Shown here piece by piece: positions 53,570 to 64,000 of a DNA stretch of 64,000 bases. The translations under genes and the position numbers were made by a program. Numbering within the stretch: the first letter of the stretch is position 1; each line of letters opens with the position of its first letter. The stretch lies in NCBI GenBank assembly GCA_965207225.1, contig CBDBLV010000005.1, positions 288,001-352,000 on the forward strand. The letters are read 5' to 3'. Source of the DNA: Dehalococcoidia bacterium. GTDB taxonomy: Bacteria > Chloroflexota > Dehalococcoidia > Plut-88900. The notes below the pieces were generated by a model. It saw nothing but the letters and a program-made list of their open reading frames with translations, did not search any database and was not told the origin of the DNA.

Positions 53570-55051
53570 TCACGGATAAAAAAGCTTCCGCGCTTCCCGA
53601 CGCAACTCGGCGCGGAAGTCCGGGTGCGCCACGCTGATCAATTCCTCGGCCCTCTGCCTGAACGTCTTGCCGAACAGGCTCGCCACCCCGTATTCCGTCA
53701 CCACGTAGTCCGCATACCCCCGAGGCACCGTGATCGCTGTCCCCGCCTCGTGTTGCGGCACGATACGCGACACCACCCCCTTCATCGCTGTCGACCTCAG
53801 GCACGTGATCGCCCGACCTCCTCGCGAGCTTAGCGCTCCCATGTGAAGCTCCGGCTGCCCTCCGGTCCCCGCTATCAACCTCCCCCCGAACACCGTTTCC
53901 GCAGTGATCTGCCCCGTCAGGTCTATGGCTATCGCACTGTTCACCGATACCATGTTGTCGTTCGCCGCCACGCTGGCCATGTTTACCACGTAGGACGTAT
54001 CCCTCAGCTCGAACATCGGGTTATTGTGTGCGAACTGGATCTCGTCCTGCGTGCAATTGGAAAGCGACGAGGCCACGTATTTCCCCGCGTGAAAGTTCTT
54101 GCGCTTGCCCGTAACTACTCCCTTACGCACGAGGTCGATCAGGCCCCTCGGTGACATCTCCGAATGGAACCCGAGGTCATGCTTTTCTTCCAGCACCCCC
54201 ATGCTCGGTAGCAGTGTGGACGGCGTCCCACCCCCGACCTGAAGGCAAGACCCATCGGTAATAAGCTCCGCGACCTGCCGGCATATTGCCAGGGCTACAG
54301 GCTCCGGCTCACTTTGAAACCCCATCGATTCAGCCCATCGCCGCATCGCTTGGGCTTCCATATTCGTCAGCTTCGGAATTAGCTCGTAGCGCCTCAATGG
54401 CTCTATCCGGCTGGATATGGCCTTCAGCTCCTCCTTCGCCTCTTCGTCCTCCATGCCCCGGATAATCGACTCCATCTCTTCATCGGGCATCGCCCTCGAC
54501 GAGTTATCTACGAACCGGTCAATCTCGGATACATGGATATAGTTGGTTCCATACGTCCGGATGTAGGTATCGTTGACCTCTGCCAGCACCACCTTGGCGT
54601 GTCTGGCCAGTTGCCTCTTGTACCACAGGTACGGCCCGAAACTGCAATATCCGTTCTTGTCCGGCGGCGACACCGTGCACATAAACACATCAACGGGCGG
54701 AGCGTCAGCGCGGCGGTCGTCCAACGGCTTGTGCCATAGGGAGAACAGTGAAGGCAGATAGTCGCCCCGCCTCTCGTCGATCATCATCCCACCCCCACTC
54801 ATCCCCACATGGACGGTCAGCGTAGTGGATAACGACCCCTCCTGTCCCGGCTCATACCACGGCATGTCGTAGGCCGGCTCGGACATAACAGTCTCAACGC
54901 CCTTCAGTTCGGTCCAACGCTCCCCCAGCGCCGGCGGCAAAACCGAGGGCGTCGGCGACATGGCTATCTCCACCCTGTCCCCCGACTTCACCAGCTTCAC
55001 CGCCTCGTCCGCGCTGACCAGCTTCCGCTTGTAGTGCTCTTGCCAGTCCAT
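53570..55051 (-). CDS. Acetyl-CoA hydrolase/transferase (4-hydroxybutyrate CoA-transferase-like)
   Basis: VSPPDKNGYCSFG, HSEM, GTGGQ, VVTEYG, AHPDFR. Confidence 0.92.
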   Translation of the reverse strand: MDWQEHYKRKLVSADEAVKLVKSGDRVEIAMSPTPSVLPPALGERWTELKGVETVMSEPAYDMPWYEPGQEGSLSTTLTVHVGMSGGGMMIDERRGDYLPSLFSLWHKPLDDRRADAPPVDVFMCTVSPPDKNGYCSFGPYLWYKRQLARHAKVVLAEVNDTYIRTYGTNYIHVSEIDRFVDNSSRAMPDEEMESIIRGMEDEEAKEELKAISSRIEPLRRYELIPKLTNMEAQAMRRWAESMGFQSEPEPVALAICRQVAELITDGSCLQVGGGTPSTLLPSMGVLEEKHDLGFHSEMSPRGLIDLVRKGVVTGKRKNFHAGKYVASSLSNCTQDEIQFAHNNPMFELRDTSYVVNMASVAANDNMVSVNSAIAIDLTGQITAETVFGGRLIAGTGGQPELHMGALSSRGGRAITCLRSTAMKGVVSRIVPQHEAGTAITVPRGYADYVVTEYGVASLFGKTFRQRAEELISVAHPDFRAELRREARKLFYP

Positions 55052-55058
55052 CAGCGGT

Positions 55059-56540
55059 TCACGGGTAGAATAGCTTTTGGGCTTCCTGTCGTAGTTCCGC
55101 CCGGAAGTCAGGGTGGGCGACGTTGATTAGCTCCTCCGCCCTTTGCCGGAAGGTCTTGCCCAGCAGGCTGGCCACCCCGTATTCCGTCACCACGTAGTCC
55201 GCAAACCCCCGGGTCACCGTGATTCCCGCTCCGGCGTCGTGTTGCGGCACGATCCTAGATACCACACCCCCCATCGCCGTAGACCTCAAACACGTGATCG
55301 CCCGACCTCCCCTGGAGTTTATGGCCCCCATGTGCAGCTCCGGCTGCCCTCCCGTCCCCGCAATCAACCTCCCCCCGAACACCGTCTCGGCGGTTATCTG
55401 GCCCGTCAGGTCTATCGCCAGCGCGCTGTTTATGGACACCATGTTGTCGTTGGCCGCCACGTTGGCGATGTTTACGACATAGTGAGAGTCGTAAAGCTCG
55501 AACATCGGATTGTTGTGTGCAAACCTGATTTCGTCTTGCGTACATGCCGTCAGCGCCGAGACTATGTACTTCCCCGGATGAAAATTCTTCCGCTTCCCCG
55601 TGACCACCCCTTTGCGCACCAGCTCCACCAGCCCCCGAGCAGACATCTCCGAATGCACCCCCAGGTGGTGCTTCTCGTCCAGCACCCCCATCCCCGGTAT
55701 CAGCGTCGATGGTGTCCCTCCGCCTACCTGCAGGCACGACCCGTCTGGTATAAGCTCGGCTACGTACTGCCCGATTGTGAGGGCTATCGGTTCCGTTTCG
55801 CTCTGGTACCCGTAGACCTGGGCCCATGCCCGGATCGTGGCGCCGTCCATCAGCGCCAGCTTGGGTATGAAGTCGTACCGACGCTCGATTTCCACCCGCT
55901 CCGATACTGCCCTCAGTTCCCGGCTCCCCTCCTCGTCCGGCATACCCTGGATGATTTGCTCCAACTCCTCGTCAGGCATGATCTTCGGAGAGTTATCAAC
56001 GAACCGGTCTACCTCCGACACATGGATGTAGTTCGTCCCGTGTGTCCTGATGAACGTATCGTCCACCTCTGCCAGCACTACCTTCGCATGTCTCGCCAGC
56101 ACGCGCTTGTTCCATAAATGCCCCCCGAAGCTGCAGTACCCGTTCTTGTCCGGCGGAGACACGGTGCACATGAAAACGTCGATAGGCGGCGCAGTCTCGG
56201 GTCTGTCGATGTGTGGCTTGTGCCACAGCGAGAATAGAATCGGGTAGTAATCGGACCGTTTCTCATCGATTACCGGCCTTGCCCCCCCCATCCCCACGTG
56301 GACCTCCAGCGTCGATGAAAACGACTCCTCGAACCCCGGCTCGAACCAGGGCATCGGGTACGTCGGCTCCGGCATCACTGTCTCGACGCCACGCAACTCC
56401 CCCCTGCGTTTATGAAGGGCCGGTGGCAGCAGCGATGGCGTCGGAAAGATGGATATCTCCACCCTGTCCCCCGACTTCACCATCCCCACAGCATCCTCCG
56501 CCGAAACCAGCTTCCGCTTATATTCTTCTCGCCAGTTCAT
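55059..56540 (-). CDS. Acetyl-CoA hydrolase/transferase, tandem paralog
   Basis: Same length (493 aa) and motifs as neighbour. Confidence 0.92.
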   Translation of the reverse strand: MNWREEYKRKLVSAEDAVGMVKSGDRVEISIFPTPSLLPPALHKRRGELRGVETVMPEPTYPMPWFEPGFEESFSSTLEVHVGMGGARPVIDEKRSDYYPILFSLWHKPHIDRPETAPPIDVFMCTVSPPDKNGYCSFGGHLWNKRVLARHAKVVLAEVDDTFIRTHGTNYIHVSEVDRFVDNSPKIMPDEELEQIIQGMPDEEGSRELRAVSERVEIERRYDFIPKLALMDGATIRAWAQVYGYQSETEPIALTIGQYVAELIPDGSCLQVGGGTPSTLIPGMGVLDEKHHLGVHSEMSARGLVELVRKGVVTGKRKNFHPGKYIVSALTACTQDEIRFAHNNPMFELYDSHYVVNIANVAANDNMVSINSALAIDLTGQITAETVFGGRLIAGTGGQPELHMGAINSRGGRAITCLRSTAMGGVVSRIVPQHDAGAGITVTRGFADYVVTEYGVASLLGKTFRQRAEELINVAHPDFRAELRQEAQKLFYP

Positions 56541-56707: not shown

Positions 56708-59068
56708 ATGAAGAAGAGACGTATTGCACTTCCCGTCATGGCTATAATAGTCATGGTCACGCTGGCCGCCGTTGGCAGCGGGTTCACCTTGGACAACACG
56801 GCTCAGTCCGAGATGAGCCTCCCCCTCCCCGCCCCCACCAACGTGCAGGTGGTCAATGGCGACAATCCCGGCGAGGTGGTGGTGTCCTGGGACGAGGTTC
56901 CCGGCGCCTCCGGTTACCACATCCAATGGGTGGACCAGGACGCCGCTTGGGACACTCACTACGCAGGCCATGACTGGCAGCGCCTCATCCTGTCCTTTGA
57001 AGTTGCGGGGAGCGAAACCACTTCCCATACTCTGATGGTCAGCAACCCGACTACCGGTGCGGTGCAGTACCAGTTCAGAGCAGGCAGCAAGGGCGTCTCC
57101 AACGCAGAACCCGCAACTTGGTCGGTGTGGCAGGGACTGGAGGTGCAGGGAGACGCCGACAAGGACCTTCAGGCTCTCGCCGCCGCGATTCGTATTTCAA
57201 GGCTCGCCGGGCAGTTGGTTGCCTTGTCCGGCCCTACTACCACTTCTATGACCCAGGACGCCCTCGACCAATCTGGGGCAGCAATCGCTGGCCACAAGGC
57301 CGACCTCGCTGCTCAACTGAAAGTACTGGCCGGAACCGGCTATGACGCTCGGGCCGGCGAGATTGAAAGATTAGTCAACAATTTGGGATCTAACGCGGAC
57401 CTTATCCAGGAAGGCAGAGGCCCATTGCTGGCTGAGCTCCTTTTGGGGATAAGAAACTGGCAGAGCGTGACTATAGACAGCACCATAAAAATAGTCCCTG
57501 CCGCCGAGACCATACTCGATGACGAGTTCTATGACCTCGTCACCGGTGCCGATGATGCGGGATCAGCCCATCTCTCCAACCTCGACCTTCTCCGCTACTC
57601 CCATCTGAAAAATTTGACGACAACCTTGGACCTCGCAACTCCCACTCTCCTGGGCGCCAGCACGCAGGATAATCCTGCCCTGGCAGGCCAACTCCACGAA
57701 TTATTTGACGGGAGGGCTGCCGCTGCTGCCCGCGACATTGAATTTCTGAAGGAGCTTGAGGACCCTCGATTGGCGGACGTGCTCCGCCTCATTGAGGAAA
57801 TGTTTGCCCGCGGGCAGGGGGATAAGAACCTCTGGGATGGCTTGTATCGTCGGCTTGGCTTGATAACGCGGGAAAGAGTCCTGGTTGCGAACGTCGCCAA
57901 CATTCAGCAACAGTTGCTCGGTGAAATTAACGGCCTCGTGGCCGACGTTCAGGGCGACCCACAACCCTCGACAACTCCCCTGGTCGAAGCTGGCGAGCCC
58001 GGCATTACTGACAATGAGATTAAGTTCGGGCAATCGGCTGTTTTGACGGGGCCCACTGCCGCATTGGGTGAAGGGATGCGGCTCGGCGTCCAGGCTGCCT
58101 TCCACGAAGTGAACCAGGCAGGCGGGATCCATGGCCGACAGCTGACCCTCAAGACCCTCAACGACCATTACGAACCCTTCTTTGCCTTTTCCGCCACCAG
58201 TCAGCTGGTCAATAGGGACCGTGTATTCGGGATGATCGGCGCCGTGGGCACGCCCACTACTCGTGCTGCCCTGCCCTCGGTGGAAGCCGGCCATGTTCCT
58301 TTCGTAGGAGCGTTCACCGGAGCCCAGCTGATCCGGCGCGATGATCAGACTTACGTCCTCAACGTGCGGGCCTCCTACCACGACGAAGCCAGGGCAATGG
58401 TGGATTCCCTGGAAGAAATGGGCAAGACCAGGGTGGCGGTCCTCTATCAGAACGACTCCTTCGGCCTTGACGGCCTGATAGGCGTGGAAAAGGCGCTGCA
58501 AGGGCGCGATGACATGGAACTGGTGGCTTCCTGGTATTACGTCCGCAACACCTCCGCTGTGAAGTCGGCAGCCTATCGTATCGCCAATGCCAATCCCGAC
58601 GCAGTCATCATCGTCGGGTCTTACACTCCGGCGGCCGAATTCATCAGGTACACCCGCCTCAGGCTTGCCGATGCCCCCATCTTTATGGCCGTCTCATTCG
58701 TTAGCAGCGACGCACTCAAGGACCGCCTTGAAGAACTCGACCAATCCCTGGCAGACGTTTACGTGACCGAGGTGACGCCTTCGCCCTACGATGAAAGCAA
58801 CCCCTTGGTTGCCGGGTATCAAGCCGCCCTGTCCGCATTCGACCCAGAGGCGGAACCCGGTTTCACCTCCCTCGAAGGCTATATGGCCGGACGCCTGGCC
58901 ATCGCACGGTTGCAGGAGTGCGGCCCCGATGTCACTCGGGAATGCTTCCTTGACGTCTTTGATGAGACCACAACTGTAGACATAGACGGCCTCCAACTCG
59001 AATTCGGGCCCATGGATAACCAGGGCTCTGACAACGTGTCCCTGATGGCCATTCAGCAGGAGGACTAG
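56708..59068 (+). CDS. Secreted FN3 + helical domain + type I periplasmic binding protein fusion
   Basis: Signal peptide; PAPTNV..VSWDEVPGASGY (FN3); GITDNEIKFGQSAVLTGP, VGTPT, RASY. Confidence 0.82.
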   Translation: MKKRRIALPVMAIIVMVTLAAVGSGFTLDNTAQSEMSLPLPAPTNVQVVNGDNPGEVVVSWDEVPGASGYHIQWVDQDAAWDTHYAGHDWQRLILSFEVAGSETTSHTLMVSNPTTGAVQYQFRAGSKGVSNAEPATWSVWQGLEVQGDADKDLQALAAAIRISRLAGQLVALSGPTTTSMTQDALDQSGAAIAGHKADLAAQLKVLAGTGYDARAGEIERLVNNLGSNADLIQEGRGPLLAELLLGIRNWQSVTIDSTIKIVPAAETILDDEFYDLVTGADDAGSAHLSNLDLLRYSHLKNLTTTLDLATPTLLGASTQDNPALAGQLHELFDGRAAAAARDIEFLKELEDPRLADVLRLIEEMFARGQGDKNLWDGLYRRLGLITRERVLVANVANIQQQLLGEINGLVADVQGDPQPSTTPLVEAGEPGITDNEIKFGQSAVLTGPTAALGEGMRLGVQAAFHEVNQAGGIHGRQLTLKTLNDHYEPFFAFSATSQLVNRDRVFGMIGAVGTPTTRAALPSVEAGHVPFVGAFTGAQLIRRDDQTYVLNVRASYHDEARAMVDSLEEMGKTRVAVLYQNDSFGLDGLIGVEKALQGRDDMELVASWYYVRNTSAVKSAAYRIANANPDAVIIVGSYTPAAEFIRYTRLRLADAPIFMAVSFVSSDALKDRLEELDQSLADVYVTEVTPSPYDESNPLVAGYQAALSAFDPEAEPGFTSLEGYMAGRLAIARLQECGPDVTRECFLDVFDETTTVDIDGLQLEFGPMDNQGSDNVSLMAIQQED

Positions 59069-59132
59069 CGCCTACTGGCCCATGGGCATCGAACCTTGGA
59101 CTCGCGCCATCGCGCTGCGGTCAAAGCGGTTT

Positions 59133-59170
59133 TATCCATAGGGGCGAATAACCATTCGCCCCTATGGATA
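59133..59170. terminator. Perfect 17-bp hairpin between convergent genes
   Basis: TATCCATAGGGGCGAAT-AACC-ATTCGCCCCTATGGATA. Confidence 0.75.
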
Positions 59171-59299
59171 CATCATCCTCTCCGCCTCCCGACGCAGTTC
59201 TGCCCTGAAGTCCGGGTGCGCAATGCTGATTAGCTCCTCCGCCCTCTGCCGGTTCGACTTCCCCATCAGCTGCGCCACCCCGAACTCCGTTATCACGGT
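59162..59299 (-). pseudogene. 3' fragment of a third acetyl-CoA hydrolase/transferase, cut by the integrated element
   Basis: [45 protein letters not shown] matches C-termini of 53570 and 55059 genes. Confidence 0.9.
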
Positions 59300-60921
59300 A
59301 TGGCAGACGCAATCGCTACAGAATCATCCGTAGGGGATTCAGGTTCGGGAGCATCTGTCCCGAGGGGGTCGTCGTCGATGGGAATGGCCAGGGTAATGTC
59401 CACGTTGTTGTCCCTGTCGATGACCACCTGCTCCACCACCATCAGGAGAATCTCCCTGCGCTGCTCATCGGTTAGGGCGTTCAGGCCCTTGCCTACTTCT
59501 CTGGCCCAAACCAGGACACTCTCCAGCATACGCCGCTTCTCGACCTCGCTGGCTTCCTGAGCGCGGTAGTAGTCCAGCTTCGCCCTGGCGCTCTCCAGTC
59601 GCTCGGTGATGTACCTGCGCTGGTGGTCCAGTTGGGGCTCGGTTATCTTCCCCGACACGAACAGCCTGATGGCCCGGTCCTCCTCCATCTGGATGCTCCG
59701 CACGTCCCGCTCTGCCTGGGCTATCTCCTCGTCCAGCCCGCCGCCATCCTGGGAATCGAGGGTCTCGATGCCCGCAATGATCAAGTCCGGGCTTTGAAGC
59801 ATCCGCTTGACCTCGCTCCAGACCGGCTCCTCCAGCCGCTCGGCCCTGATGTATTGACGGTCTCTGCACTTGATGCGGAGGCTGTGCATCCCGTGGCACT
59901 TGTAGTAGCGCTTGGGAGTCGTCAGGTCGTAGCGGTACTTCTTGCCGTTGTGAATGCTGGAGGTCCTCCACTGGGCCTTGGCGTGGAAGTTGTGGCCGCA
60001 CTCGCCGCATTTGAGAAGGTGCTGCAACAGGTAGAGCACCTTGGTATTCCTCTTGGCCCTCCTGCTCCGCTGCTTCTTGAGGGCCTGCGCCCGCTCCCAG
60101 GTCTCGTCGTCGATGATCTGCGGCACGGGCACCTCTATCCAGGTGTCCTCCGGCTGTTCGTAGACCTTCATGCCGTCTTCGGTTGAGAGGTGGCGTTCCT
60201 TGCCGTACATCCAGGCGCCGGTGTAGGTCTCGTTCTTCAGAACGTTGTGGACGTATGCCTGGCTCCACCGCGTATTGCCGGTCTGGGTGGGAATGCCCTC
60301 GTCGGTGAGCCGCAGGGCAATGGAGGGAGAGCCCACGCCCTCTTCGAGGTACATCTGGAAGATGCGGCGCACGACCTCGGCCTGCTCTTCCACCACCTCC
60401 GGCCTGCCGTCGTCTCCGATGCGGTAGCCATAGGGAAGTCTGCCTGTGGGCACCCGCCCCTGCTTGGCGGTGCCGCGCTTGCCCAGGGTGGAGCGCTCGC
60501 GGAAGTTGTCCAGCTCTATCTTGCCGATGGCTGCCATGAGGCCGAAGGTCTTCATGTCGATGGCGTCCATGACAGCTTCAAGGCGTATCTGGTGGGCTTC
60601 GACGACCTCCATGAGGGCTGCTGCGGGGTACATGCCCCGGCTGAGCCGGTCGGACTTCCAGCATACGATGACATCGAATCGTCCACGTCTGGCGTCGGCC
60701 AGCATCCTCTGGAACTCCGGGCGCTTCTTTGACCATCCCCTGCCGACCTCGTGGTATCTGGCAACGATGGTCAGTCCCTTATCCTTGCAGTAGGCTTCCA
60801 TCTCGCCCATCTGCTCGGAGATGGAGGTCTTGTCCTCGGTGTCCTGGCTCTTGTCGGAGACGCGTGCGTAAATAGCCGCCCGGTTCGGCTCCGTCCTTCT
60901 ATTGGTAGTTCTGGCCATCAC
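59293..60921 (-). CDS. Large serine recombinase/integrase
   Basis: [17 protein letters not shown], Zn ribbon CGECG...C...C, coiled coil. Confidence 0.95.
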
Positions 60922-60949: not shown

Positions 60950-61336
60950 TCAGGCGACCTCGATGTCGGTCAATTCGAAGTCACTGCCCTTGAATAGCAG
61001 AGGCTCCCGCGTAGTTTCTGCAAGGGCGTAGGAGAAACAGTCGCCAAAGTTCAGCCCCGCTGGGTGGTTACGCTTGCCGAACCTCCGCCAGGCCCGTCTT
61101 GCCGCGTGCGCCTGTTCAGGGGTGACCGGCTCAAGCTCGATCCCCGCCTCTTGCAGGAAGGCGTCAAGCTCGTAACCGGCGGCTGGACCGCTGCGACTTT
61201 CGAGGACAATGCTCGTTTCCAAAAGGGTAGCCGCCGACATGCGACGGGTCGGCGCCGACGTGATGGCCCTGGCGAAGCGCGCAGCGTCCGGCTCGCGGAA
61301 CAGGATGGCAAGCACTGCCGAAGTGTCTAGGATCAC
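60950..61336 (-). CDS. vapC: VapC PIN toxin
   Basis: VILDTSAVLAIL, LNFGDCFSYALA. Confidence 0.92.
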   Translation of the reverse strand: MILDTSAVLAILFREPDAARFARAITSAPTRRMSAATLLETSIVLESRSGPAAGYELDAFLQEAGIELEPVTPEQAHAARRAWRRFGKRNHPAGLNFGDCFSYALAETTREPLLFKGSDFELTDIEVA

Positions 61337-61590
61337 TTGGGCAGCCCCCACTCGTCATACAAGAAATCGCCGTGTTCAACGGCAGAGGGGCCGTCGCCCA
61401 TCATGCTGGCGCAGCGCTCTCCTATAGCGAGAAGTCTTTCGACCTGTGCCTCGGCGCTGCGCTCACTCCTCTCGCGTTCCAGCCGCTCCCTGAGGGCCAC
61501 CGTTATAGCGCCGGTCATGGTATCGCCGGTGAGTTGCGCCAACTCGCTGGCCAACCGACACGTCTCTTCGTTCTTGATGTTGATGCTCAC
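61333..61590 (-). CDS. vapB: VapB antitoxin (Rv0623-like)
   Basis: INIKNEETCRLASELAQLTG, LYDEWGLPK; GTGA overlap with toxin. Confidence 0.9.
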   Translation of the reverse strand: MSINIKNEETCRLASELAQLTGDTMTGAITVALRERLERERSERSAEAQVERLLAIGERCASMMGDGPSAVEHGDFLYDEWGLPK

Positions 61591-61770: not shown

Positions 61771-62181
61771 TCACGCCTCCAGCCAGTTCTCCACCGACAA
61801 TTCAGGGATGCGCTGAAAGTGCCGGATGTTGCCAGTGACAACCGTCAGGCCGCGAGAGAGGGCTATGGCGCCAATTCTGAGGTCCGCCTCCCCCAGAGGC
61901 GTTCCCTGGCGTTCCAGTTCCGCTCTCACTTCACCGTAACGACGTGCTGCATCTCCATCGAACGGGAGCACTGGCAGATTGGGCAGTAGGGCCTTTTCCA
62001 GCCGGTCCAGAAGTAGGGTGGTGTGCGTTTGCAGCTTGTAAGCCCCGTAGATCATTTCACCCAGGGTGATGCTGGATGTGAACTGGGCCTCCTGGGGCAC
62101 CGAAGCCAGCTTGGCGACAAGAGCGGTGGAGGGTGTGCGTTTGGCGATGTTGCTCAGAATGTCCGTGTCGAGGAGGTACAT
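61771..62181 (-). CDS. vapC: VapC PIN toxin
   Basis: YLLDTDILS, DLRIGAIA, VVTGNIRHF. Confidence 0.92.
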   Translation of the reverse strand: MYLLDTDILSNIAKRTPSTALVAKLASVPQEAQFTSSITLGEMIYGAYKLQTHTTLLLDRLEKALLPNLPVLPFDGDAARRYGEVRAELERQGTPLGEADLRIGAIALSRGLTVVTGNIRHFQRIPELSVENWLEA

Positions 62182-62483
62182 CAGATGCTCATCTCCACCG
62201 GGCGTCCCAGGTCGTTGTCCCGCTCGGTATAGATCTCCTCTAGCAGAGACTCCACGTCGGCATCGTCGATTTCCCGCCACGCCCCCGCCAGGGCGAGAGC
62301 TCCCTGGGGTCTTTCGGATGTCGTCTGAGCCTGCCCAAGGTATTCCAGGTCGGAGACCCTCACCAAGGCTACCCAGGGTTTGTTTCGCCGTTCGATGATG
62401 ACGTGCGGCCCCCCGTAGGCCACCTCTGACGCTATGGCCGAAAGTTGAGCCTTGGCCTGCGCTGCGCTCACTCTTCTAACCAT
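62181..62483 (-). CDS. Phd/YefM antitoxin
   Basis: VSAAQAKAQLS, IIERRNKPWVALV; TGATG overlap with toxin. Confidence 0.88.
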   Translation of the reverse strand: MVRRVSAAQAKAQLSAIASEVAYGGPHVIIERRNKPWVALVRVSDLEYLGQAQTTSERPQGALALAGAWREIDDADVESLLEEIYTERDNDLGRPVEMSI

Positions 62484-62662
62484 TGTTCGCACCTCCTGCT
62501 GTATGACTGATTAGCCGACATGACCAATTGTATCTCATATAGACTACAATGACCAGAAGGTCTGTGTGCTGGTATGCACTGGGCTGGGCGAATGTCGGCG
62601 CGTTGGTGGATGCGCTCGACGTCTCTTCGCCTACCATGAGGGACATGCTTCTCCGGCGGATT

Positions 62663-62974
62663 CTATGCGGGTTGGTAGCGCTGGACGCTGACCTCGCTCT
62701 CCCTGGCCCGCATCCGCGAGGCGTCGTGCCAAGCCTGCATACGCAGCAGCATGTCCATGTTCACGTCAAACGCCTTTTCGATGCGAAGGGCCATCTCCGG
62801 CGACAGTGAGGCGTTGGCGTTGAGAAGGTCGGATAGGGTCGCCCTGCGAACGCCGAGTATCTCGGCCGCCCTCTTCACGCTTAGTCCCAACTGCTCGATG
62901 ACCTCCGTGCGGACGAAGTCGCCCGGATGGGAAGGCGTCATGCGTACTTTGATATTGCTATCGTCGTTGACCAT
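62663..62974 (-). CDS. higA: HigA antitoxin
   Basis: HPGDFV, LSPEMALRIEKAF, LRMQ. Confidence 0.92.
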   Translation of the reverse strand: MVNDDSNIKVRMTPSHPGDFVRTEVIEQLGLSVKRAAEILGVRRATLSDLLNANASLSPEMALRIEKAFDVNMDMLLRMQAWHDASRMRARESEVSVQRYQPA

Positions 62975-63264
62975 CAGTGGTAGTCCTCCAAGTTCAGCCG
63001 ATATATGTGTCCGTCGTCCTCTTCAAAGGTGATCCGCCAGTTGCCGGATACCGAGACGCTCCATTCTCGTCTTCGGTCTCCCGAGAGCCTGTGAACGCGC
63101 CAGCCGGGAGGCGCGTCGGCGATGAAGGCGTCCATGCGATCGGCCAGGATGACGACAGTCAGAATCCTGCGGACCCGGTCAACCAGCTCATGGGGCAGGA
63201 ATCGGCAGTCATCGTCTTCCAGCAGCCTGCGCAATCCCCTGTGGCGGACGGATCGGACGATCAT
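62974..63264 (-). CDS. higB: HigB (RelE-like) toxin
   Basis: HRGLRRL, HRLSGDR, SVSGNWRITF, LEDYH. Confidence 0.92.
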   Translation of the reverse strand: MIVRSVRHRGLRRLLEDDDCRFLPHELVDRVRRILTVVILADRMDAFIADAPPGWRVHRLSGDRRREWSVSVSGNWRITFEEDDGHIYRLNLEDYH

Positions 63265-63548: not shown

Positions 63549-63929
63549 TCACGATGCGGGTTGGAGTTCCTCAATCGTGACCTCTGCGTCACTGTAAGCG
63601 TCCATCGTAACCCGGCTACCCCAGATCAGTGCCATGCCCAGCAGCGGAGCGCTATCCGATTGCAACACCAGAACGTCGCTTATGCGGCTATGCCAAGAGA
63701 CTGAGCCAAGGTAGACCTGGAAATCAAATAGCTCACCGTTGGCCAGCTCGAAAGTCCGCTGACCGACGGACGGCAACCCCAGATCGCTGACGGTTCGTGG
63801 GGACAGAGTAAGGTATCCGGTGAAACCGGTGTCGAGGACCACCTCGACTGGCTGGAGACGCCCATAGCCATCCATGATGTCTACGACAATCAGGGCCTGT
63901 TGGTCGCCACTTACGCTTCCCCTAATCAC
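63549..63929 (-). CDS. Clan AA aspartyl protease (paralog of 48316)
   Basis: VLDTGFTGYL, LGMALIWGSRVT. Confidence 0.88.
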   Translation of the reverse strand: MIRGSVSGDQQALIVVDIMDGYGRLQPVEVVLDTGFTGYLTLSPRTVSDLGLPSVGQRTFELANGELFDFQVYLGSVSWHSRISDVLVLQSDSAPLLGMALIWGSRVTMDAYSDAEVTIEELQPAS

Positions 63930-64000
63930 GGTGTACAGGCGTCCGAAAACCGCCGACGTGACTGTATGCCGCGCGATGGCCGACGCGCACCCCGTAGGTC
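63922..64000 (-). CDS. C-terminus of small partner protein (paralog of 48048), partial
   Basis: TYGVRVGHRAAYSH...HRD*; GTGATTAG overlap. Confidence 0.75.
   Translation of the reverse strand, partial: TYGVRVGHRAAYSHVGGFRTPVHRD

Follow-up and report, generated by a model that had tools for sequence, protein, structure and literature searches.

Integrase end of a Dehalococcoidia ICE at a split CoA-transferase gene: a palindromic repeat as apparent natural target and a hybrid scar of chromosome rearrangement

In streptococcal ICEs that target rumA, the att site is located inside the gene of the serine integrase, and the enzyme's C-terminus is changed (Ambroset et al. 2016, PMC4701971), and in the Dehalococcoides ssrA genomic islands the 3′ end of the DsiB gene always overlaps att (McMurdie et al. 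2011, PMC3146451); an att site within a serine-integrase gene is already published. The locus analysed here resembles the rumA elements as described there (PMC4701971) in being part of an ICE, in its Resolvase–Recombinase–Zn-ribbon integrase with att inside the gene, in a C-terminus that differs between the integrated and excised forms, and in having a protein-coding gene as insertion site. The rumA ICEs use one conserved target gene whose 3′ ends are swapped reciprocally, whereas the usual target of the present element is a multi-copy palindrome, and the gene was destroyed, its halves being parted by rearrangement. DsiB, which is compared by description only, comes from the same bacterial class and is a CcrB-like serine recombinase of about 540 aa whose 3′ end overlaps att and whose full function is proposed only on the circle; its islands, in contrast, are non-conjugative and occupy single-copy ssrA with a direct repeat, and no conserved tail is identified in the parts of that report drawn on here (PMC3146451). 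IntP of Myxophage Mx8 (as summarized in PMC4701971) likewise has attP in the integrase gene and a less active integrated form with another C-terminus, but it is a tyrosine recombinase, and there 13 residues take the place of a 112-residue tail.

Breaks in synteny that coincide with integrase targets or with element–host repeats have been described for the pTN3 integrase in Thermococcus (PMC5495485) and for prophage–host lytA recombination in pneumococci (PMC8637289). In those cases a tyrosine recombinase or homologous recombination is at work, whereas the case described here involves a serine integrase, 2-bp cores and a hybrid attB scar. This base-precise hybrid scar of a chromosome rearrangement is what is new.

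The stretch analysed (64,000 nucleotides, C5:288001-352000; hereafter the window) belongs to a 4.03-Mb genome in five contigs (G000; completeness 92%, contamination 8%). The named sequencing runs that contain it are mostly sponge metagenomes, three RNA runs hold small shares of it, and loci homologous to its integrase come from Dehalococcoidia/Chloroflexota assemblies. Two intact host CoA-transferase paralogs of 493 aa each (53570..56540, minus strand; assigned by tblastn, domain search and synteny with the related genome G008) are followed by a plus-strand gene for a 786-aa periplasmic-binding-domain protein (56708..59068), which in G008 faces an intact CoA-transferase gene. In the window an orphan piece lies beside it, the 3′ 44 codons and stop of an acetyl-CoA hydrolase/CoA-transferase gene (59162..59296, minus strand; AcetylCoA_hyd_C, E 3.4e-15), and then a large serine recombinase gene (59293..60918, minus strand; 541 aa in the integrated form), so that the serine integrase and adjacent CoA-transferase C-terminus noticed in a first-pass annotation are both borne out. 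That annotation also took the fragment for a third paralog, in agreement with the CoA-transferase cluster of relatives; 42/44 of its residues are identical in the 492-aa ortholog, which is intact in G007 and G005. At window positions 59284-59286 the fragment has Phe where the eight intact orthologs listed have Tyr, a change that creates GTTC, which is common in target arms of the family.

The recombinase carries the Resolvase, Recombinase and Zn-ribbon domains (PF00239, PF07508 and PF13408) that define large serine recombinases, and DUF4368 was not matched in the Pfam search. It does not reach the NCBIfam thresholds for CcrA/B/C and XisF (135 bits, where the CcrB equivalog requires 900), and its close homologs have erratic lengths of 532-830 aa. 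The genome contains over 40 genes or gene pieces for large serine recombinases, most of them about 25% identical to the window enzyme; they sit in near-identical ICE bodies, inside which several contigs end.

Three sister integrases in the same genome, 61-63% identical to the window enzyme, belong to elements that can be bounded at both ends. In these elements the arms are inverted, an ATTG-type motif lies at a distance of 13 nt from a 2-bp core, and in 3/3 the core is identical at both ends (TC, AG and AA). In the window, GT at 59295..59296 (minus strand) lies 13 nt past an ATTG-type arm motif that is in frame with the integrase, the 5′ half of the host gene ends at the same GT, and intact orthologs read through it in 8/8 loci listed (of 10); the crossover is therefore placed at this dinucleotide, 1-9 nt outside the range 59297-59305 proposed at first. 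The element-side arm (P; 59297..59318, minus strand) lies within the integrase reading frame, forms an imperfect inverted repeat with the far-end arm, has the geometry seen in the sister elements and shows 0 mismatches over 40 nt in G031, G032 and G217. The last integrase codons thus overlap both arm and core, and the TGA (59293-59295) consists of the second core base and two host bases. The earlier idea that this stop overlaps the host codons ACC-GTG-ATA therefore holds for the stop itself, which uses host bases, but not for ACC (59297-59299, Thr): the four closest orthologs have Ile at this codon, three others Met and only the most distant Thr, so ACC is element DNA.

The missing 5′ part of the gene had been expected at the far end of the element, but it was found elsewhere. 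The 11 tblastn matches of the CoA-transferase family in the assembly comprise nine copies with both ends, the 3′ piece in the window and one 5′-only copy (C5:1227025-1228370, plus strand), which lies behind leuC-leuD and has no C-terminus. Both pieces match one ortholog up to the same GT at codon 450; 8/8 same-genus genomes searched have an ortholog closely related to the 5′ half whose frame stays open past the break, and its length is 492 aa in the 8 loci listed of 10. leuC, leuD, the intact gene, the 786-aa gene and two paralogs follow one another, in this order, without interruption in G008. The shared break, the ortholog match and this order indicate that the two pieces are one gene, and 5′ and 3′ pieces abutting at one dinucleotide are beyond chance. 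The halves are now 880 kb apart, and the 5′ half abuts half of a palindromic repeat and not element DNA. None of the other nine paralogs is interrupted in the assembly; the element has knocked out a redundant metabolic paralog, and nine intact ones remain. One of these (G000:C5:885813-887279) has a stop one codon ahead of the usual end.

The same GT occurs at two further junctions, one joining the 5′ gene half to the half repeat, here called REP (C5:1228369-70), the other joining a REP flank to the far end of the element (C2:23765-66). A 2-bp core shared by three junctions, together with inverted att arms, is the signature of a large serine recombinase and bears out the earlier view that the window junction was made by the integrase. 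The far-end arm was located via the sister elements, a plain mismatch scan being too noisy. The end on C2 is of the family type with a GT core, its flank ends in CC, the usual lead-in of REP, and it is 96.7-97.5% identical to the far ends in G031 and G032, where the integrases are 96% identical to the window enzyme and the first 8.6-11.6 kb of the elements 97-99% identical. Because these two genomes pair near-identical far ends with near-identical integrases, C2:23765 is the right partner end. An orphan far end at C4:810500 was ruled out as partner by its CT core; it sits in the 5′ part of a recombinase gene, and neither a matching integrase nor the rest of that gene is among the tblastn matches listed.

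On C5 the REP half is followed by nurA, and HAS-barrel and herA genes lie past the flank on C2. These neighbours adjoin in G008 and G001, and nurA-HAS-herA is contiguous in G008, so the three junctions (element with gene 3′ half, gene 5′ half with right REP half, left REP half with element) close into a cycle between two host sites. The synteny of 40 sampled G008 stretches breaks at the same places, and the three joins have only two to five bases in common. With the query used, nurA was not found in the same-genus genomes G007 and G005 (92% completeness), and the REP region of G008 lacks an exact copy of the repeat that is cut in G000, so the empty REP site is not directly observed.

Comparison of targets points to the repeat as the natural attB of this recombinase and to the CoA-transferase gene as a secondary site. 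Among the seven closest copies (window included), the flank is REP in 5/7, namely in G031, G032, G033 and twice in G034, which holds two GT-core copies; the G217 copy is a direct insertion in a MaoC-like gene, the two flanks of which share a reading frame. The repeat occurs at 26 sites against about 4.7 expected, 17/26 of them preceded by CC, and forms a hairpin of -7.7 kcal/mol. It is thus a short multi-copy palindrome behind a conserved tetranucleotide, as REP sequences are defined, and we take it to be a REP of the CGTC class; a crude motif scan of gene calls gave no match to a RAYT transposase. The first-pass proposal that a multi-copy CoA-transferase family serves as attB, which homologous integrases should then share, did not survive: 84 homologous loci were examined, 83 of them usable (one lacks the C-terminus), and a CoA-transferase C-terminus downstream of the integrase occurs in 0/83, which makes the gene a one-off secondary site. 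A downstream match in one locus (L097; E 0.01, 26%, mid-protein) was taken as noise. The proposed new recombinase–att pair is nevertheless defined, with REP in place of the CoA-transferase gene as its apparent natural attB.

The lineage of the window integrase uses a GT core, and its insertions are usually at the start of a multi-copy REP-like palindrome and sometimes in coding DNA, while distant family members have other cores and sites. An anchor was obtained for 67/84 loci and a core for 49, of which 4 lie in the repeat, 8 in other recombinase genes, 19 at one shared TT site, 2 in genes that we presume to be comM-like from a peptide motif, and 16 elsewhere. Insertion at ssrA with a direct repeat, the mark of DsiB islands, was not found, the flanks being REP or coding DNA. 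With a matrix of 29 family target arms, the CoA-transferase right arm ranks in the top 0.6% of GT sites and is the best among the paralogs of the genome (2.7 against -0.5 to -10.2); its fit to a REP matrix, which is rough and includes one mis-assigned arm, is poor, about 7% of GT sites equalling it. GT is present at the equivalent codon in 6/9 intact paralogs. Multi-targeting large serine recombinases, in which one 90%-identity cluster is found in unrelated targets, have been described (Durrant et al. 2022, PMC10083194), and the 90%-identity cluster of the window integrase similarly has three kinds of target among seven copies (REP, MaoC-like gene and CoA-transferase), which falls short of the class with '>3 gene clusters' in that paper. 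As portrayed there, such enzymes commonly carry DUF4368, which is absent here, and the main target here is a repeat.

On the element side, the window appears to show the integrase end (attR) of a Dehalococcoidia ICE. An antitoxin and PIN toxin pair (60950..61590; PF07704, PF01850) and two further toxin–antitoxin pairs found by domain search (Phd-PIN and HigA-HigB, 61771..63264) form cargo on the minus strand, and an aspartyl-protease-like gene (63549..64000, also minus) marks the point where the element runs on past the window. About 30 nt separate the end of the first pair from the start of the integrase gene on that strand, so the two may share a transcript. A conjugation module follows (C5 353713-364244), with relaxase-like protein, coupling protein, TraG/TraC-type ATPase, pilins and TrbL; the matches that qualify the element as an ICE (PF13814, PF10412, PF19044/PF11130, pilins, TrbL) are modest and above cut-off. 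attL and attR do not flank one contiguous element, the matching far end being on C2, and the body ends in the end block of another family. A block of 993 bp is identical in four places (C5:378140-379132, C3:10531-11523, C4:709009-710001 and C5:2003423-2004415), and its last part codes for a C-terminal tail, that of the other recombinase family, which is in frame with the integrase at C5:379072-380709. The element also has an exact 6351-bp stretch in common with another ICE on C1, and its counterpart is contiguous in G031 (about 46 kb) and in G032. It is a rearranged copy that otherwise works as ICEs do. The first-pass annotation had suggested looking for reads across the circle or an empty site; neither a circle junction nor an intact gene was among the listed features of assembled contigs in four contig sets, a list that does not extend to 145 loose ends. 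A metagenome scan gave two uninformative loci (59-71% identical) and a viral scan none.

Because the crossover site lies within the last codons of the integrase gene, the rest of the reading frame is encoded only by the excised circle. In silico circles of four elements add 21-28 in-frame residues, and the window integrase gains 28 conserved residues to reach 569 aa against 541 aa when integrated, in line with the earlier expectation that the C-terminus differs between the two states. The tail, stored at the far end upon integration, has the consensus core N-S-N-G-K-L-R-Y-S-W-x-V-x-L. A collection of 39 far ends contained 33 distinct ones; the K-L-R-Y-S-W motif keeps its Arg and Trp in 33/33, five different codons are used for the Arg, with switches between AGR and CGN, and an early stop occurs in 1/33 (L132). 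The motif lies 27-44 nt from the core, outside the arm of about 22 nt. In 22 non-redundant far ends, variation is highest at third positions (0.27 vs 0.19 and 0.13), and the synonymous share in frame is 0.54, vs 0.31 and 0.20 in the other frames and 0.28, 0.44 and 0.10 in the antisense frames; these figures do not amount to a formal test because the far ends are kin, found by similarity to the G000 end. The tail motif occurs in 0/120 close integrase homologs, and one natural protein of 270 (P0228) bears it in frame, as on a circle. Invariant residues, codon switches, synonymous share and rare attachment support the view that the tail is a protein part under purifying selection, apparently existing only in attP-type junctions. 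It has no Pfam match. The N-G-K motif resembles a segment in the zinc-ribbon insertion of the same enzyme (window 59296-60918; L107:123-212), and in G000 an ATG that chances to lie in the host flank turns the tail into a 30-codon ORF. The tail could be a beta-hairpin that completes an active, integration-competent enzyme on the circle, the integrated copy then making a weakened enzyme, as reported for Mx8; we give this even odds. The pair of 541 and 569 aa offers a handle on the question raised by the 2011 and 2016 reports, whether integration-dependent loss of the tail regulates a serine integrase.

The two exchanged GT sites are the REP between nurA and HAS-barrel/herA and codon 450 of the CoA-transferase gene. 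That att lies in the last integrase codons, that the GT core prefers REP and that the two sites exchanged flanks through three junctions is very probably correct, judging from the sequences; for the whole explanation, comprising the ICE attR end, the flank exchange, a two-copy route and the role of the tail, we estimate a probability of roughly 0.7. One ICE copy would have integrated at REP and another at the secondary site in the CoA-transferase gene, and the copies would have exchanged flanks, either by homologous recombination or by attL × attR recombination between them. One hybrid copy would then have excised, leaving the scar of 5′ gene half and REP half, and later exchanges with other ICE bodies may have parted the two ends of the remaining copy. 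This route, which needs canonical reactions only, is marginally favoured; the coding-site integration in G217, the two copies in G034 and the 6351-bp stretch shared with another ICE support it. The second copy is assumed, because only one copy of the integrase is left in the assembly (92% complete). Both sites have the same orientation in G008 and G001, so with reference to these genomes the event joins the two ends of a block of about 2 Mb instead of just inverting it, and further rearrangements are needed; several others separate G000 from these relatives. A simple 880-kb inversion restoring the ancestor was ruled out by the same co-orientation.

Alternatively, a single ICE copy at REP could have undergone one further step, a direct recombination by its integrase between attR (or attL) and the naked pseudo-site in the CoA-transferase gene. 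This would take the fewest events and would agree with the same GT core at all three junctions, with the one integrase copy present now and with the high rank of the CoA-transferase right arm among GT sites and paralogs. attR × attB is not a normal pair for large serine integrases, and the reaction would need exactly this abnormal pair, whereas there are observed cases both of direct integration at a secondary site (G217) and of exchange between ICE bodies. Large serine integrases are also inactive on product sites unless a directionality factor is present, according to the part of 10.1101/2025.05.02.651858 considered here, and the single-copy reaction is rather unlikely. A further reading, more doubtful still, is that the tail is a built-in directionality switch: with the tail the enzyme would perform attP × attB, and without it, pair discrimination being lost, attR × naked GT pseudo-sites. 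If this were true, the three-junction cycle would be the direct product of the tail-less enzyme, a resident ICE would drive chromosome shuffling at REP and at coding sites that resemble it, and there would be a natural serine integrase that targets repeats and whose direction depends on a short peptide.

Assembly errors at the junctions were also considered, the genome being a metagenome-assembled one rich in repeats. Dozens of similar ICEs, contigs that end inside them, 8% contamination and a 6351-bp identical stretch that could be mis-resolved would favour them. One contig, found in X1 and X4, two runs of one sample that is possibly the source, is identical to the window from 57500 to 59322, but it passes the core by 26 nt, under the 31 nt set for a bridge. 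The joins, however, share two to five bases, fall where the sister elements predict and close a consistent cycle, and mis-assembly, which could explain the parted ICE ends but not the GT junctions, is very improbable as their cause. That the element simply inserted into the gene, with the CoA-transferase family as its regular attB, as first annotated, would fit a junction within the gene and the GT in 6/9 intact paralogs, but is largely refuted and barely credible given a 5′ half joined to REP and not to the element, 0/83 homologous loci with the tail of the gene and nine uninterrupted paralogs.

The locus is an example of chromosome reordering by such elements in sponge-associated Dehalococcoidia. 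It also yields a base-precise set of integrase, attP and attB with a multi-copy palindromic repeat as the apparent natural target, and the specificity is directly testable because this target and two natural secondary sites are defined. phiRv1 integrates into REP13E12. No REP-targeting serine integrase and no such hybrid attB scar was found in the literature covered, which leaves out most subscription papers and supplements, and the target tables of PMC10083194 could contain the family.

The sister elements sit in another recombinase gene or in the helicase-like gene of another element (C2:123261, C2:150903 and C5:1522766-1544296). In the helicase-inserted one, about 190 nt inward, lies a second far end that is degenerate (C5 about 1522950-1522990).
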